Positions 10,051 through 64,000 of a stretch of 64,000 nt of DNA are shown here, piece by piece. Source of the stretch: a virus (lineage: Duplodnaviria > Caudoviricetes). The notes beneath the pieces are model-generated. The model did no database searches and was not told the origin of the DNA. It was given only the letters and a program-made list of their open reading frames with translations. Where the stretch lies: positions 51,744 through 115,743 of the IMG/VR virus record IMGVR_UViG_3300032038_000027. One strand, written 5' to 3'. Both the position numbers and the translations under genes were made by a program. The stretch's first letter is position 1. Every line of letters starts with the position of its first letter.

Positions 10051-11205
10051 TTATAAATTGTTTTTCAATGAATCTACCGCCAAATATCCCTCGGCTTCAG
10101 CAAAATGAATGTAAGTATCGAGCGTGATCTGCACGCTTGCATGACCGAGTAGAGTAGAGATTGTTTTAATATCTGTATGATTTCTAAATAGCATATTGGC
10201 AAAAGTGTGCCTCAAAGAATGTGTTGAACCTTTATTTATATTTGTATTTTGAATTATTCTGCGGAAGGTTCTATCATATTGTTGCGGCGCAAGAACACCG
10301 CCATCTTTCGCACATACTATTCTTTCAGACAGCGGAAATTTATCGCACATTCTTTGTAATGCTTTTTCAGCCATTTCATTTAGCGGAATTTTTCTATAGC
10401 CGGAATATGTTTTGGTAGTTGTAGATATTGTTTCATATCCTATGGCATTTCCATTATCATCACGTTTTCTAACTGTCTGCACATTTTCTCTGATAGTCAA
10501 AACATGATTTTCTTTATTCCAATCCGATTTTTTGAGAGCTACAATCTCACCTCTTCTCGCCCCGGTATTAAGCTGCAAGATATAAGCATCACCATATAAA
10601 TATACTGGCGTTTCTGAATTTGGATATAATCTTCTACATTCTTCAACTATAAGTCTTGATTCCTTATCGGTAAACCACACCATGTCTTTTTTTGGAAAAC
10701 TGGATTTTTTCGCAAGAACAACTCCATCCATCGGATTATATTCAATGTGTTTCATTTTAAAAGCGTGAGAAAGAATCATTTTTGCGCCATCACGAGCTTT
10801 TTTCACAGTAGAGTATGACAATCCTTGCTTCTTTAATGTGTTTAGCATGATCTGTATATCTTTTGTTGTAATTTCAGAAATACGAATCATTCCGATATGA
10901 GGATAAATTTGATTTTTAAATGTTTTTTCAAGAGTATCATATGTGGATGCTTTAACGGTGTTTAATTTATATGTTACGAGCCATTCCTTTGCATATGTTT
11001 CGAATGATGTGGTTATAGGGTTGATATGAGTTTCGACATTGAATTGATTGATCTGCTTTTGTACTTCCATTTTTGTCTTGCCTGAAAAATAAGCCATTTC
11101 TGGTTTACCATTAGATTTGTATCTGCCCGTTCTTATTCTGCCGTAATATTTATCACCTCTTTTGTAAATACTTCCTGTTCCTTTTGGTCGTCGTGTTTGA
11201 GCCAT
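10051..11205 (-). CDS. int: Tyrosine integrase
   Basis: N-terminal RRPKGTGSIY arm-binding region; TGARRGE (R), HSLRHT (HxxR), LLGH, and DTY (catalytic Y). Confidence 0.95.
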   Translation of the reverse strand: MAQTRRPKGTGSIYKRGDKYYGRIRTGRYKSNGKPEMAYFSGKTKMEVQKQINQFNVETHINPITTSFETYAKEWLVTYKLNTVKASTYDTLEKTFKNQIYPHIGMIRISEITTKDIQIMLNTLKKQGLSYSTVKKARDGAKMILSHAFKMKHIEYNPMDGVVLAKKSSFPKKDMVWFTDKESRLIVEECRRLYPNSETPVYLYGDAYILQLNTGARRGEIVALKKSDWNKENHVLTIRENVQTVRKRDDNGNAIGYETISTTTKTYSGYRKIPLNEMAEKALQRMCDKFPLSERIVCAKDGGVLAPQQYDRTFRRIIQNTNINKGSTHSLRHTFANMLFRNHTDIKTISTLLGHASVQITLDTYIHFAEAEGYLAVDSLKNNL

Positions 11206-44128: not shown

Positions 44129-45070
44129 CTATTGGATTTTTACATTTATGTAATCAAGCACATTTTTCATTCCTAAACCACCGTCATTCCAATCTCTCAT
44201 ACAATACTCCCATAACTTCGGATGCGTTTCATGTAATCTTTGAAATCTATTAGGTTCTTTTTCAAGATGACATCCAAAGCCGCAGAAAACACAGCCCGTT
44301 CTATCACAGCCGGTCGTATATAGTTTGCCGTTTTCATCTTCCTTGATTTCGCTGTAAACAGAAGCATAGGGAATGTTGTAATTGCGGAGATATTGCAATA
44401 CGTCTTGCTCAGTCCAAAAGCTCATAGGGCGGGAAGTTGGACGTTTACTATTAAAAGCATTACAACCATACATTAACCAGTTAGACTTTCTCTGCACTGA
44501 TTCTTCTGTCATAGTTGCGATAATTGGAACTTTACCAGTTTCTTTTTCATACTGTTTGGCAGGATTCTTTTTCATCACATCACAGCATTTATCAGAAATA
44601 AGAAATGGAGCATCAACTAAATATTTATGACATTCCGAAATTTTACCACGACCATATTTATTGCCATTCCAACGAATATCTTTTAGCTTTTCAGATTTTG
44701 TAGTTCGATATTCTTGAATAAAAGCCGCTTGTTCTTTTCCTATAATGGGATAGCCATATGTTTCGATAACTTTTCTGAAATTCATCTTTGGTTTAAGTCG
44801 AATAACATTTTCTTGACTTAACGCAAATTCCCTTACTTCTGGATATTCCAATCCCGTATCGACAAATACCGCAGGAATATTTGGTCTTAATTGTCTGGCA
44901 ATATGTAATAATACTGTGCTGTCCTTACCTCCGCTAAACGAAACATAAGCATCATATTCTCTTAACCATTCTCTAATTCTGTTTGTTGTTAGACCAATCT
45001 TGACATTTAAAGGCATTGATTGAAAATACTTTAAATGCTCTGCGGTAAAACTTGAATTAGATTTTTTATT
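44129..45070 (-). CDS. PAPS-reductase-family (PP-loop) protein; native start lies on the flipped segment (predicted OFF)
   Basis: SFSGGKDS, VDTGLEY, CC, RTGCVFC. The frame is open to 45076 but closed by TAA at 45077-45079, and there is no SD-preceded start. Confidence 0.85.
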   Translation of the reverse strand, partial: NKKSNSSFTAEHLKYFQSMPLNVKIGLTTNRIREWLREYDAYVSFSGGKDSTVLLHIARQLRPNIPAVFVDTGLEYPEVREFALSQENVIRLKPKMNFRKVIETYGYPIIGKEQAAFIQEYRTTKSEKLKDIRWNGNKYGRGKISECHKYLVDAPFLISDKCCDVMKKNPAKQYEKETGKVPIIATMTEESVQRKSNWLMYGCNAFNSKRPTSRPMSFWTEQDVLQYLRNYNIPYASVYSEIKEDENGKLYTTGCDRTGCVFCGFGCHLEKEPNRFQRLHETHPKLWEYCMRDWNDGGLGMKNVLDYINVKIQ

Positions 45071-45203
45071 TAGATTTTAGTCAAATAAAATACCAATGTT
45101 TCGGTAAATTATTTAGCTGTTATCAATTAGATCATAAAGTGAAAGTTTAATAAGCAGCGAAAGTTAGGTGTTTAATAAATGGAAGAGCCAAATAAAAAAT
45201 CTA
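45058..45203. promoter_or_regulatory. Putative invertible start-codon switch A
   Basis: 14-bp perfect IR at 45058-45071/45190-45203; AGGTG-8nt-ATG GAA GAG CCA on the + strand becomes in frame with the gene after inversion. Confidence 0.8.
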
Positions 45204-48248: not shown

Positions 48249-49058
48249 TTAATCGGATTTCTTTAATACTGTATTTGCTGCTTTAGATTTCTTTAATATT
48301 GTATTTGCTGCTTCAGATATTCTTCTTAATGCTATATCATCATATTCAAGATTGTTCTCGATGCCGATGAAATAACGATTTGTATTCACGCACGCTACGC
48401 CAGTTGAACCGCTGCCCATACAATTATCAAGAACTACGTCGCCCGGATTCGTATATGTTTTAATCAAATACTCTAATAAGGCAACTGGCTTTTGAGTTGG
48501 ATGAAATCTACCTCCATCTCTCGGATAACTTAATATACTTAGCGGATTTCGCGCACCGTCCAAAGATTCAGTATAAGCTACTCCCCTATTGCCGTAATTA
48601 TCAGACAATCTACCGTTTTTAGTCTTTTTATACGGCGAGGAATACCATAACTGCTTATTATATATAGGTTTCTTTTTGTAAAAAATCGCAATTTCTTCAT
48701 GGGATTTAAGTGGCTTTACATTGGCGTTTAGAAAATCTGAGCCGCGCTGCTTATCCCAAATCAGATTGTATCGCCATAGCTTAGTATTAGATAACATGAG
48801 ATTTGCCATGAATAAACCATCACAAAATAAAGCGATACAACCGTGTTCTTTAATAATTCTTGTGTAATGCTCCCATAATTTATCGAGCGGAATAACTATG
48901 TCCCATTTATTATGGGTTGTACCATAAGGCAGATCACATAAAATCATGTCTATGGATTCATCTGGTATTGTTTGCATTACATTTAAACAGTCACCAAAAT
49001 GTAATTCATAGTTATACGGGGGGGGTGTTGAAGCTGAATTGTTAAATATTTTTCTCAC
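48249..49058 (-). CDS. N6-adenine/N4-cytosine DNA methyltransferase (beta class), in-frame C8 tract
   Basis: CDLPY, HPTQKP, DNCMGSGSTG; poly-C at 49018-49025. Confidence 0.92.
   Translation of the reverse strand: MRKIFNNSASTPPPYNYELHFGDCLNVMQTIPDESIDMILCDLPYGTTHNKWDIVIPLDKLWEHYTRIIKEHGCIALFCDGLFMANLMLSNTKLWRYNLIWDKQRGSDFLNANVKPLKSHEEIAIFYKKKPIYNKQLWYSSPYKKTKNGRLSDNYGNRGVAYTESLDGARNPLSILSYPRDGGRFHPTQKPVALLEYLIKTYTNPGDVVLDNCMGSGSTGVACVNTNRYFIGIENNLEYDDIALRRISEAANTILKKSKAANTVLKKSD
48256..48313. repeat. 30-bp-period tandem duplication at the MTase 3' end
   Basis: GATTTCTTTAATA(C/T)TGTATTTGCTGCTT twice; encodes AANT(I/V)LKKS twice. Confidence 0.85.
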
Positions 49059-49750
49059 CTTGCTCTTGATTTGTTGCTAAAATACGCTCTTTGGCGATTT
49101 CAAAAGAGTGATCGTCTAATTCAATACCGAAGAATTTTCTGCCAGTTTCCAATGCGGCGATTCCCGTAGTTCCCGAACCCATACAAGGGTCAAAGATCAA
49201 ATCACCAACATTACTATTGTCTAATAGTAATTCTTTACATAAATCGAGATTCTTTTGAGTAGGATGAACCTTATTCCTGCCACACGGATATTCAAAAACT
49301 GTATTCTTACAATTAGCATTAAAAACTGCACCACGTTTTTTAAACCATATAGCGTTTTCAATGCCGGATAAGTAAATGTATTTGCCGTTCATTGGAGAAG
49401 GATTAGTTTTCTTCCAAATTAATTGGCGCACCGTACCTTTATGTTTATCTTGTAAATCTTGAAAGAAATTTTTAATTTCGCTTAATTGATGCTGACCACA
49501 AAATATAATAATTGTGCCAGAAGTAACACGATTGATTTCTTTAAGAAAATCTATTAGACAAAAAGTAGTAATATCTGCATATTCTTTGTTGAGATTTCTC
49601 AAACCGTTATCAGCACGATTGATCTCACCATACGGAATATCTGTTAATGTAACATTTACTGAATCAGATTCCATTTGTTGCAAAACTGTCATGCAATCTG
49701 CATTTAATAATTTTGCGGGGGGGGGTTCTACTGGCTATTGAATTAATCAT
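49042..49750 (-). CDS. Beta-class DNA methyltransferase, frameshifted at a C9 tract (phase-variable, predicted OFF)
   Basis: TDIPY, HPTQK, DPCMGSGTTG. The SD-preceded ATG at 49750 joins the main frame only with C8 or C11 at 49717-49725. Confidence 0.85.
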
Positions 49751-60767: not shown

Positions 60768-61166
60768 TTAATCACCTCTGCTTTCAAACATCACTTGATG
60801 ATGCTCCTTAATTTGTGGAAAATCGGACTTTAACATCGCTTTTAATTCGGCAACTAATCCCTTTAAATATGCCTTTGTTAAGCCGCTAAAAACATATTCA
60901 CATATATATTTCTTATCCGCAGAACCGCCAAACATGATACACAGATCAAGTTTATTACCCCAATCAATAACTCCATCTATGACTTTTTTGTGTTCATTAT
61001 ATATTTTAGCGGTTGCCTCATTAAGTGCTTCGGTCAATAATTCTGATTTATCGAGATCATTATAATATACTGTATCGTTTGCCTCATTAAGTGCTTCTGA
61101 TTTATCGGGAACATTATTTGAATCGACAATATCCGATTTAAGTATAAACATTCCTTTAACCATCAT
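60768..61166 (-). CDS. Hypothetical protein with internal duplication
   Basis: DKSE and EALNEA are each repeated. Confidence 0.5.
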   Translation of the reverse strand: MMVKGMFILKSDIVDSNNVPDKSEALNEANDTVYYNDLDKSELLTEALNEATAKIYNEHKKVIDGVIDWGNKLDLCIMFGGSADKKYICEYVFSGLTKAYLKGLVAELKAMLKSDFPQIKEHHQVMFESRGD

Positions 61167-62100
61167 TTCTTATCAGACCTTTCAAAATATGTTTGATAAC
61201 TTCAATACACCAACCATCGCCGCACATATTATAAATATGACTATCTGCAAAATCCATTTTATACCACTCAGGTATCGTTTGTAATTTACGATATTCATGC
61301 GGTGTGAGTTTGCGACATCTGCCGTGATCGTATACTTTCTTTTGCAAATTCCCGCCACGACAAGCTGTCAATGTTGGTGATTTATAATTAGGATTGTTGA
61401 CACGTTTTAAGATATCGTGTCCATTAATATGTAATATAGCGCAAACTTTTTTGCCATCATAATAATCATAGCTTTGCGTATAATAATATTTTTCATCTAC
61501 ATCTGAATCCATAATATCGCGCAAAACTAATGAACAATTATCCGGCAACTTATTTATAGGAATGTTTGTCCAATAATTTCTCGCCCGATCTTGTGCGGAA
61601 AATAAATTTGCGTTTATTAAAATGGGTTCAACTCCTAATATTTTGCTCATTTCATGAATATCATCTTTGCGATTACTATCCACGTTTTCTACGAGAAAAT
61701 AAACCATAGAATTATTATTTATTTGAATCCATTTAAGAATCTTAGCGCATGAGTAGAATAAACTTGATGAACCTTTTAATCCATTATTATATTCTGATCT
61801 ACCCATTGTAACTTTAGATAATGATCGACACGGACTGCCGAACATCACCAAATCAATTCTTGGTAAACTTTGTAACATATTATCAGTAATTTTCGTTACA
61901 TCTCCAAGCTGTATGGTGTTCGGAAAATTATCTTGTGTGCATTTTATCGCAACTTTATCAATTTCACTCGCATAATAATTATTGATCTTAAACCCTAATT
62001 CGGTTAATGCAATTTGACCGCAACTCATTCCATCACACAAACTAAGCACATTTAATCCTTCATCGCCAAATAAAGTGTTGTTTTTATCTTTTAATTCTAT
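61156..62100 (-). CDS. C5-cytosine DNA methyltransferase (switch B, predicted ON)
   Basis: VLSLCDG, FGSPC, LVENV, QDRAR, GDGW. Frame extends to ATA at 62100 after a GGTGA SD; GTG at 62049 is an alternative start. Confidence 0.9.
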   Translation of the reverse strand: MELKDKNNTLFGDEGLNVLSLCDGMSCGQIALTELGFKINNYYASEIDKVAIKCTQDNFPNTIQLGDVTKITDNMLQSLPRIDLVMFGSPCRSLSKVTMGRSEYNNGLKGSSSLFYSCAKILKWIQINNNSMVYFLVENVDSNRKDDIHEMSKILGVEPILINANLFSAQDRARNYWTNIPINKLPDNCSLVLRDIMDSDVDEKYYYTQSYDYYDGKKVCAILHINGHDILKRVNNPNYKSPTLTACRGGNLQKKVYDHGRCRKLTPHEYRKLQTIPEWYKMDFADSHIYNMCGDGWCIEVIKHILKGLIRNDG

Positions 62101-62220
62101 TTTAAGTCACCAAACTTTCGAATGTTAATTTCATATTATATGATGGTTAATTGTTGATAATTCAATATAACTCCGCAATATAAGGGCTTTCTTAACAAAA
62201 TTCGCACAATAAAAACAACA
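62076..62220. promoter_or_regulatory. Putative invertible start-codon switch B
   Basis: 12-bp perfect IR at 62076-62087/62209-62220. The current orientation supplies SD+ATA; the flipped one gives an in-frame TAA (62193-62195). Confidence 0.7.
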
Positions 62221-62225
62221 TTTGC

Positions 62226-63752
62226 TTAATGAAACATATTTTTCATTAAATGCGCAATTACCTCTACAGTCCAACCGTTGCCTAAACATTTATAAGCCTG
62301 TGAATCACTAATCACGCTAAAATCATACCATTCCGGCACAGTCTGTAATCTCTTACATTCACTCACCGTTAATTTTCTGATTATGTAAAAACCATCTGCT
62401 AATTTAATAGGATAGGTTTTACCTTTAATTTCAATCATACCGTTCTCTACGGTATGAACAACATAAGTTTTACCATCTGCTGACGATACAGCTTTAATTG
62501 GTTTATCGTTTTCAAACTTAACTGGAATAGCATAAAGTCCAGTATTAGAACCAATCCCACCACTATTGGATTGTTGCGTTACTGATTTACCATTTATACT
62601 ATAAATTCTGTTGCCTTGCCCACCGTTTCCTATTTCACCGATTTTATGAGATGTAAGTAATTTATCATGTTCAATATTTTCATTTACTGGTTCAATTACA
62701 CCTTCATAACCGCGACCATGAATAATATTTTCTTCAAGATTTCTTCCATTACCGATTTTATAATATGTAGCTCTTAAACAACTTGATTTATCTTTACATC
62801 TCGTAGTAACCGGCTCAGCAACCATCCTGCGTGCAGCGACAGATGTTAAAGCAGCAGACTTATTATCTGTTTTAGCTTCATATCTGCGGTCATACGTTCC
62901 ATCAGATTGTTTCTTTCTGCCGTATACTTGTTCTTGTACAGCTACAGGTTCGGCAACACCACTTGCTCCGTAGGTAGAAGTATATTTGCAAATATTCGCA
63001 ATACTTGTTTGCTGATATTGTGCTTTAATTGTTTGAGATTTGCCATCCTTAGTAGTATTCACAGGTTCAAATGTCATTTGACCTTGATTTTTCTTAAAAT
63101 ATTCTCGCGTAGTAGTTCTCCCGATACTGCTAATAATTGCGCGAGATTTATCACGATTAACTACGCCATCAAGAACATCTCGTAATAATATTCCCCTATC
63201 TTCCGGTTGCGGAATATCAGCTTTTCTATATGTGCCATCATCATTTCTGATTCCGCACCAATAATATCTATTGCGATTTTGTGCCGATACTAAAGCGGAA
63301 TTTATTAAAATAGGTTCAAATCCGAATGTATTTGAAATACTTTCGTAAATAGCTTTTGCCATTGACTTATTGTTTTCATAAATAAAGTATTTAGGTTTAG
63401 CTTCTTTCAATGCTCTAACATATTGACTGAATAATTCCCAACCTAAACCACTTGCTTCAGTTTCGCGGCGATCATTCTTTTGAGCGATTGACCAATATGT
63501 GCAAGGGCTGCCGCCAATTAAGAAATCAATATTTTCATATTGAGTGAAATCCGCGTCAAATACATCACCATTTTGCTCGATCTCAGGGAAATTATGCTGT
63601 GTAACAGCGATCGCATACTTGTCGATCTCATAAGCGGAATATTTTGCAACGTTAATGCCGCTGCTCATGAACGCCAACATTCCGCAAGCCATGCCGTCAA
63701 ATAGGCTCAGAACTGAAACTCCGTCATTTGCGGATAAATCAGTGTTTTTATT
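62226..63752 (-). CDS. C5-cytosine DNA methyltransferase with extended multi-segment variable region (switch C, predicted OFF)
   Basis: VLSLFDGM, GGSPC, IYENN, QNRNR, LGNGW. The frame is closed by TAA at 63753-63755 with no SD-supported start before motif I. Confidence 0.9.
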   Translation of the reverse strand, partial: NKNTDLSANDGVSVLSLFDGMACGMLAFMSSGINVAKYSAYEIDKYAIAVTQHNFPEIEQNGDVFDADFTQYENIDFLIGGSPCTYWSIAQKNDRRETEASGLGWELFSQYVRALKEAKPKYFIYENNKSMAKAIYESISNTFGFEPILINSALVSAQNRNRYYWCGIRNDDGTYRKADIPQPEDRGILLRDVLDGVVNRDKSRAIISSIGRTTTREYFKKNQGQMTFEPVNTTKDGKSQTIKAQYQQTSIANICKYTSTYGASGVAEPVAVQEQVYGRKKQSDGTYDRRYEAKTDNKSAALTSVAARRMVAEPVTTRCKDKSSCLRATYYKIGNGRNLEENIIHGRGYEGVIEPVNENIEHDKLLTSHKIGEIGNGGQGNRIYSINGKSVTQQSNSGGIGSNTGLYAIPVKFENDKPIKAVSSADGKTYVVHTVENGMIEIKGKTYPIKLADGFYIIRKLTVSECKRLQTVPEWYDFSVISDSQAYKCLGNGWTVEVIAHLMKNMFH

Positions 63753-63886
63753 TTAAATTCCGGTACTTTAAATGCCCAATAATTGAGAATTTATAATTCG
63801 CTGTTTATCTTAGATATTTTAACAACGACATAAAAACATATAGAAAGGTGGGTGTTTCACAATAGATTTAGCCAATAAAAACACTG
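63740..63886. promoter_or_regulatory. Putative invertible start-codon switch C
   Basis: 13-bp perfect IR at 63740-63752/63874-63886; GAAAGGTGGGTG-7nt-ATA GAT TTA GCC on the + strand becomes in frame after inversion. Confidence 0.78.
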
Positions 63887-63892
63887 TTTACT

Positions 63893-64000
63893 TGTATGCG
63901 GGTGAGGATTCGCACCTCACATGGCACACTTTCGCTTAGTTATCGAGTTTCTTCCACCCTACTCTCACTTCGCCACAGGAAATTGTGTACCTTCCCATCA
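63893..64000 (-). ncRNA. Possible tRNA-like RNA 3' end (truncated by window edge)
   Basis: T-arm-like GTGAGG-TGCGAAT-CCTCAC followed by CCGCATAC; no full cloverleaf visible. Confidence 0.3.

Follow-up and report, generated by a model that had tools for sequence, protein, structure and literature searches.

An invertible cassette of about 150 bp at the 5' end of a phage C5 cytosine methyltransferase gene, and its probable role as an ON/OFF switch

The stretch of DNA analysed here, which we call the window, is the final 64 kb of a linear IMG/VR viral contig of 115,743 bp with 34% G+C; the contig is estimated to be 74% complete, with about 26% of the phage genome missing from it, and coordinates preceded by G000 lie outside the window. 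Close to the end of this window, two genes of the C5 cytosine DNA methyltransferase family (PF00145), called A and B, follow each other on the minus strand with a short cassette bounded by inverted repeats (cassette B) between them, in a neighbourhood that also holds a SAM synthetase gene and three N6/N4 methyltransferase genes. The features of this locus are the following:

61156..62100, minus strand: C5 cytosine DNA methyltransferase gene B, 314 aa from ATA and 297 aa from GTG 62049
62047..62060, minus strand: alternative start outside the cassette, with AAGGA (62060-62056), 6 nt, and GTG (62049-62047), opening M-LSLCDG...
62073..62087: gene-proximal inverted-repeat arm, AAGTGTTGTTTTTAT on the plus strand, inside the reading frame and coding for the leader residues D-K-N-N-T
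62088..62208, minus strand: invertible interior of 121 nt, with ribosome-binding site (RBS) and ATA on the coding strand, the ON orientation
62100-62098, minus strand: proposed start codon ATA, which follows GGTGA at a distance of 6 nt
62111-62107, minus strand: GGTGA, 6 nt before ATA
62107..62119, minus strand: RBS GAAAGTTTGGTGA, resembling the GAAAGGTGGTG-type sites before other ATG genes of the phage
62135..62165, minus strand: candidate outward promoter, TTGAAT (62165-62160), 19 nt, TATAAT (62140-62135), a consensus match only
62193..62195, plus strand: TAA that enters the gene frame upon flipping, from a simulated inversion
62209..62223: distal inverted-repeat arm, ATAAAAACAACATTT on the plus strand, 3 nt from the stop codon of gene A (62226-62228)
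62226-63692/63749, minus strand: C5 methyltransferase gene A (PF00145), upstream neighbour of gene B

In a profile search, gene B matched PF00145 with an E of 1.7e-27 over profile positions 2-322 of 324, and it carries both motif I (LSLCDGMSCG) and the catalytic GSPC, so that it counts as a full-length C5 methyltransferase. The nearest solved structures are the catalytic domains of the eukaryotic DNMT3A and DNMT3B (E about 1e-20), behind which the bacterial M.HhaI ranks with an E of about 1e-7, and judged by homology methyltransferase B is a Dnmt3-like phage enzyme. A particular likeness of its N-terminus to M.HhaI was set aside as weak: the full-length phmmer alignment extends as far as query residue 2 and chain residue 3, and the 30-residue leader alone gave no match. 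Among cultured phage relatives, only distant methyltransferase fragments were found. A methyltransferase of 78% identity, which starts with a usual ATG and has no cassette, lies in a 180-kb contig (L157, CATXZD010000004.1) of the metagenome-assembled genome of an uncultured Ruminococcus sp., and this is the sole hint of a Ruminococcus-like host, consistent with the strong Shine-Dalgarno sites of the phage.

The arms of cassette B, as found by a repeat search, are 15 nt long and 93% complementary, with 12 nt perfect and 121 nt between them, for a total of about 150 bp. The proximal arm lies in the coding frame of gene B and the distal arm lies between genes, a layout named partial intergenic. 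Along the minus strand, the text runs GAAAGTTTGGTGA CTTAAA ATA GAA TTA AAA GAT AAA AAC AAC ACT ..., onward to GTG CTT AGT TTG TGT GAT GGA, and the frame of gene B is open from the TGA at 62109-62107, which is the end of GGTGA, via ATA into motif I (LKIELKDKNNTLFGDEGLNVLSLCDG). The RBS and ATA face gene B in one orientation of the cassette only. The simulated flip reads ...GLS*QNSHNKNNTLFG, with the TAA in frame, and this flipped state contains no ATG, GTG, TTG or ATA between that TAA and GTG 62049; two natural flipped copies described below (L125 and L127) have TAG where the simulated flip has TAA. A simple-sequence-repeat switch at gene B was also looked for, and there is no such tract within 62040-62230. 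These results agree with an earlier note on this DNA, which had called the gene a C5 methyltransferase, had placed GGTGA and ATA on its coding strand and had predicted that flipping would bring the TAA in frame: the coordinates match. The caveat raised in the same note, namely an AAGGA-6nt-GTG start outside the cassette that might bypass it, is equally well founded, as this start is present and conserved in all variants of cassette B.

The key evidence for inversion comes from near-identical relatives in other metagenomes, which were taken from the 90% protein cluster of methyltransferase B, while an exact-pattern scan for the proximal junction in viral and metagenome collections gave no match. 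The proximal arm is found in L124 to L127 and in L005, and the distal flank ATGTTTCATTAAGCAAA is kept in L125 and L127 despite the different upstream gene there. In L124, an ENA sequence whose gene is 100% identical, the cassette has the same orientation as in the window, and the interior agrees at 121/121 positions. In L127, with a gene 85.9% identical, the same arms stand in the same place with the interior inverted, matching at 119/121 positions after reverse complementation, and L125 (gene 94.5% identical) likewise has its interior inverted between the same arms, with 105/121 matching positions. The contig of L005 (gene 95.8% identical) starts inside the interior of cassette B, which is again inverted. 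In L126 the interior is inverted as well (109/121 after reverse complementation), and nucleotides 1-68 are the perfect reverse complement of nucleotides 190-257, so that the cassette is flanked at either end by the 5' end of the gene. This contig was built from short reads by MEGAHIT, and its name indicates a k=119 assembly; a fold-back at k=119 therefore requires that the sample contained reads across each of the two junctions, ON and OFF, which is indirect evidence of a mixed ON/OFF population. On the testimony of these assemblies, cassette B is a genuine inverton that occurs in both orientations in nature. Its interior also appears to be under constraint or selection, because between the window and L127 it is 119/121 (98%) identical vs. 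85.9% for the gene, a gap that would reflect either a stronger constraint on the cassette or a recent exchange.

Cassette B is not alone in its contig. Inverted repeats with a TTTTTAT core and a spacing of 95-150 nt occur exactly three times in the 115,743 bp, against 0 in 20 shuffles, and all three are placed at the 5' ends of DNA-modification genes. Unanchored 11-mer inverted repeats of similar spacing arise a few times by chance, and therefore, the case rests on what the cassettes share, namely the ATAAAAA core, equal spacing and a location at the 5' ends of genes. The two sister cassettes, and the gene next to the second of them, are the following:

63737..63889: sister cassette at gene A, arms 63737-63752 / 63874-63889, a 16-nt repeat with 121 nt between, OFF
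45058..45203: sister cassette at the PAPS-reductase-like gene (cassette C), a 14-nt perfect repeat with 118 nt between, OFF, with a true ATG
44129-45016, minus strand: PAPS-reductase-like gene (PF01507)

The RBS reads GAAAGTTAGGTG in cassette C and GAAAGGTGGGTG in the cassette of gene A. In the latter, the RBS and the codons ATA GAT TTA GCC lie on the opposite strand, and the first in-frame ATG of the gene (63692) falls within motif I, ahead of which the gene offers no other start. When the three interiors were aligned globally, they showed no likeness outside the RBS end. Cassette B is thus ON in the contig, with the other two OFF; ON and OFF states are also found among relatives, and this, together with the exact inverted copies in L127, L125 and L005 and both junctions in L126, supports what the earlier note had proposed, namely an invertible cassette caught in the ON orientation beside sisters in the opposite state.

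The same design is found at modification genes of other phages. Among relatives 59-72% identical in protein, L037 carries the PAPS-reductase cassette in the OFF state, and L039 and L043 carry it in the ON state; the repeats are AATAAAAAATCAA, ATAAAAATTCTA and ATAAAAAATCTG, and the spacers measure 120-126 nt. L153 also has an ON PAPS-reductase cassette, and its contig begins exactly at the boundary of the interior. Cassette-less PAPS-reductase relatives have an ordinary ATG and retain the N-terminal residues YTSEDLKEMQ..., and because these residues lie upstream of ATG 45016 in the window, this ATG is internal. Elsewhere, two tandem C5 methyltransferases, each with its own cassette, are both OFF in L154 and L155 and both ON in L156 (cassette regions 1-260 and 1020-1210 of L154 and the same regions of L156), with repeats AATATTTCTTTTAT and AAATTTTCTTTTTA and with ATG and GTG starts inside the cassettes. 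The joint OFF state of L154/L155 vs. the joint ON state of L156 leads one to ask whether switches lying side by side flip as a pair. Given that the cassettes recur at other modification genes, this class of element supplies the translation-initiation region in several phages.

Some further observations were made on these cassettes and their surroundings. The AT-rich interiors (window 62170-62185, 63760-63770 and 45130-45140, and the cassettes of G001 to G003) each hold, about equally far from the distal arm, a short CG-containing motif, such as TTGCGG, TCCGGT, TTCGGT or CCGCGA, which might be bound by an accessory factor or act as a promoter element; the sequence TTATATTGCGG is present twice more in the contig, at G000 35138 and 35480. 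Just upstream of the gene A cassette, a tRNA-like element (window 63896-64000, continuing into L124:2010-2150) combines a D arm of type-II-like form (GGTGGAATAGGTAGACAC) with a T arm and acceptor (GAGGTGCGAATCCTCACCCGCATA); TATGCGG pairs with CCGCATA, and the two arms are about 88 nt apart. Neither ARAGORN with its intron option on nor Rfam called it.

Homopolymer tracts are found at other methyltransferase genes of the same phage. A G8 (49018-49025) and a G9 (49717-49725) are the only G/C runs of at least 7 in the 115-kb contig; each is placed at the 5' end of a gene for an N6_N4 DNA methyltransferase (48249-49058 and 49042-49692, both minus), where it reads as C on the coding strand, and the two fit slipped-strand ON/OFF switches as far as their sequence and position can tell. 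In a 77%-identical ortholog of gene B without a cassette (L004:2970-3010, IMGVR_UViG_3300031760_003956), the N-terminal leader contains a G7 tract that shifts the ATG out of frame, and with G8 the frame would be regained; P0003, from another contig, reads MGNILNKKVGGGISVLSL, in frame. In L127 (3280-3420) and L125 (1610-1750), the gene upstream of cassette B is not a C5 but an N6-adenine methyltransferase with a DPPY motif, and it is broken after about 32 codons by a G7 tract that resembles another repeat-tract switch.

Which start codon serves gene B is the next matter to consider. ATA initiates poorly in E. coli. In gene B, no other near-cognate start is found from the in-frame TGA to GTG 62049, its distance of 6 nt from GGTGA is normal for the RBSs of this phage, and it is invariant in five cassette variants (the B variants plus cassette A), while the codon before it is AAA in the window, L126 and L127, AGA in L125, and ACA in cassette A. 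L176, which lacks the cassette, reads GAGGTGA TTT ATG ATA GAA TTT AAA AAT vs. TTTGGTGA CTT AAA ATA GAA TTA AAA GAT in the window, and because the ATG of L176 stands one codon before the same ATA GAA TT, the initiation regions are homologous, with the old ATG replaced. ATG-started homologs open with MIEFKNLSS... (P0013) and MSDIKDKRN... (P0014), which resemble (I)ELKDKNNT, and by these comparisons the leader before motif I is coding. No special initiator tRNA was found in the contig, whose only tRNAs are tRNA-Glu, tRNA-Asn and tRNA-Cys. We infer that ATA is the start codon in use, a conserved weak start that would give a low ON level.

The GTG outside the cassette deserves equal attention. It is kept in L005 and L125 to L127 with AAGGA or AAGGG before it, and gene callers choose its equivalent in P0122, P0123 and P0126. 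The Shine-Dalgarno-like AAGG is largely forced by conserved [E/K]-G codons, and the equivalent GTG of L156 has no ribosome-binding site. Compared with the shortest ATG-started homologs (MNVLSLCDG), the GTG product would lack 2 residues, and because many homologs start only two residues before the GTG point, the OFF state may still yield active enzyme, so a leaky or short isoform from GTG 62049 may exist.

With regard to transcription, the interior probably carries a promoter pointing at gene B. The TTGAAT hexamer is kept in L125 to L127, with TATAAT, CATAAT or TATGAT as the -10. A consensus promoter scan gave no more sites than shuffled sequences, its top match overlapping the RBS; TTGAAT-19-TATAAT is unlisted there because its spacer exceeds 18 nt.

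Most likely, then, and we say this with good though not complete confidence, cassette B is a site-specific invertible element that delivers an RBS, an ATA start and a probable promoter to the methyltransferase gene, and the phage is probably able to turn this enzyme on and off. In such a mechanism, a recombinase would swap strands within the 15-nt inverted repeats and thereby flip the 121-nt interior. In the ON state, a Firmicute-style RBS, and probably a promoter, would be placed on the coding strand, the interior would supply the start of a 17-codon leader (ATA GAA TTA AAA, followed by the repeat-encoded GAT AAA AAC AAC ACT), and the full-length enzyme would be made from the weak ATA start. 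In the OFF state, the gene-proximal end would present an in-frame stop and no RBS, leaving at most the short protein from GTG 62049. Cassette B would act independently of its two sisters and of the two poly-G tracts in other modification genes; with independent switches, the phage population would therefore hold mixed DNA-modification states.

The main rival view is that the segment does invert but that translation always begins at GTG 62049, the ATA leader being the decayed remnant of an ATG start, so that a flip would alter either transcription or how much long protein is made relative to short, rather than the presence of a start codon. This is unlikely but by no means negligible, given that AAGGA, 6 nt and GTG are kept in all B variants, that gene callers pick this GTG, that the ancestral ATG seen in L176 is gone from every B and A variant, and that the TTGAAT-19-TATAAT of the interior aims at the gene. 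In contrast, the cassette of gene A has no alternative start before motif I to fall back on, related cassettes carry real ATG or GTG starts, ATA stays constant while the neighbouring codons vary, the AAGG is largely dictated by the [E/K]-G codons, and L156 has the equivalent GTG without an RBS; we therefore retain the ATA start within the cassette as the more probable origin of the full-length enzyme.

The objection that the segment is inactive, the two orientations being rare inversions fixed between strains and the fold-back contig an assembly artefact, draws on the fact that all of the evidence comes from assembled contigs, with L126 itself a short-read MEGAHIT product. Against it, orientation differs among sequences that are 94-100% identical, ON and OFF interiors are 98% identical, both states are found at at least 5 different genes with the same design, a k=119 graph needs both junctions in the reads in order to fold back over a 12-15-nt repeat, and contigs break at or inside two cassettes (L005 and L153), all of which makes a fixed inversion very improbable. 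We give hardly any credit to a MITE-like miniature transposable element with terminal inverted repeats, inserted at gene 5' ends either way round: the cassettes are indeed short, bounded by inverted repeats, present in several copies per genome and missing from the orthologs L004, L157 and L176, but the three interiors are unlike except for the RBS, each locus has its own repeat sequence, no target-site duplication was noticed on reading the ends, both orientations occur at the identical position, and one arm belongs, in frame, to the coding sequence and is homologous to the N-terminus of relatives that lack a cassette. A reading as attC sites of an integron was rejected, since the inversion is exact and no GTTRRRY core was noticed on reading the repeats, and a serine-invertase switch of the Gin/Hin/Cin type or a shufflon was ruled out, as the contig has no PF00239 match and the interior lacks an alternative open 5' end.

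The site-specific inversion that we favour would be the work of a recombinase, and the contig, which has no serine recombinase matching PF00239, encodes two tyrosine recombinases that are candidate invertases:

10051..11205, minus strand: integrase-type tyrosine recombinase (PF00589), beside tRNA-Cys
G000:29947-30999, plus strand: XerC/D-like tyrosine recombinase of 350 aa (PF00589), outside the window

NCBIfam gave only sub-threshold Xer-like matches. Homologs of both candidates also occur in G004 and G005, relatives that lack cassettes, and for this reason neither is linked to the cassettes. The genes common only to cassette-bearing contigs (kinases, nucleotidases, methyltransferases and RNA-repair enzymes) include no recombinase. 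The invertase may thus be one of the two tyrosine recombinases, a product of the missing quarter of the genome, or a host-encoded enzyme.

Among known systems, the mpl (P35 family) promoter invertons of Mycoplasma penetrans reportedly have an element of about 135 bp with 12-bp repeats. According to the summary in PMC2268961 of the work of Horino et al. 2003, these invertons resemble the phage cassettes in that many genes each have a very short upstream element between short inverted repeats, switched ON and OFF independently and hence in combination, and the catalysts proposed in that summary are tyrosine recombinases encoded elsewhere in the genome. The differences are that mpl concerns surface lipoproteins of a bacterium and an intergenic promoter element, whereas cassette B concerns DNA-modification enzymes of a phage, has one arm in the coding frame, and also gives the RBS, the start codon and the first four codons. 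Also comparable are the gut-bacterial invertible promoters and the RecV switches of Clostridioides difficile (Jiang et al. 2019, cited in PMC10333322; 10.1101/690230), which share with cassette B a small repeat-bounded segment, a tyrosine recombinase serving several loci, and ON/OFF control of the adjacent gene. Compared with these, cassette B has shorter repeats, candidate recombinases in place of a linked one, control that would be translational at least in part, and phage orphan methyltransferases as its targets.

In terms of layout, cassette B is like the so-called partial intergenic invertons or gene-altering inversions (Chanin et al., PMC10028968; Milman et al., PMC9881135), which have one repeat in the coding sequence and the other between genes, and in which, as in cassette B, inversion changes both the protein end and the regulation (PMC10028968; PMC9881135). 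The published partial intergenic cases are mostly long, shufflon-like swaps of alternative domains, significantly longer than the other classes (PMC10028968). In contrast, cassette B is much shorter, an ON/OFF element of 150 bp that lacks an alternative coding end and is borne by a phage in several copies per genome.

Phase-variable methyltransferases are familiar as bacterial devices. Phasevarions, whether based on simple-sequence repeats in Mod genes or on the hsdS "epigenetic invertons" (PMC7672463), are similar to the present case in the reversible switching of a methyltransferase that leads to epigenetic heterogeneity, and the same phage offers a parallel to them in the G8 and G9 of two other methyltransferase genes and the G7 of its relatives. 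Cassette B, however, involves neither a repeat tract nor an hsdS domain swap; it would deprive a Type II-like orphan C5 methyltransferase of its initiation region, and it is viral. In the literature covered, including a 2026 review of methyltransferase regulation (PMC13076061), we found no case of inverton-gated phage orphan methyltransferases.

Taking all of this together, we put forward, tentatively and with rather less than even confidence, a combinatorial phase-variable phage epigenome, possibly in a Ruminococcus-like Firmicute host, in which mini-invertons of about 150 bp, all served by one recombinase reading an ATAAAAA-type core, each supply or withdraw the entire translation-initiation region of a DNA-modification gene and work alongside poly-G tracts in further methyltransferases. 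If this were true, as many as 32 modification states could arise from five genes, a conserved non-canonical ATA would serve two of the switches for a low ON level, and virions would hedge their bets between classical restriction in some hosts and methylation-dependent restriction in others. There are also practical consequences: genes in the OFF state are mis-started by gene callers (297 vs. 314 aa here, and 295 vs. 317-321 aa for the PAPS-reductase-like gene), and the cassettes are easily missed because assemblers break or fold back at them. The conserved ATA at a good RBS, in turn, provides a natural and testable case of non-canonical initiation. Should the switch work as we read it, phage populations would vary their own DNA modification on purpose, and this would bear on host range, on how phages evade restriction as well as modification-dependent defence, and on how the silent methyltransferase genes of viromes are to be read.
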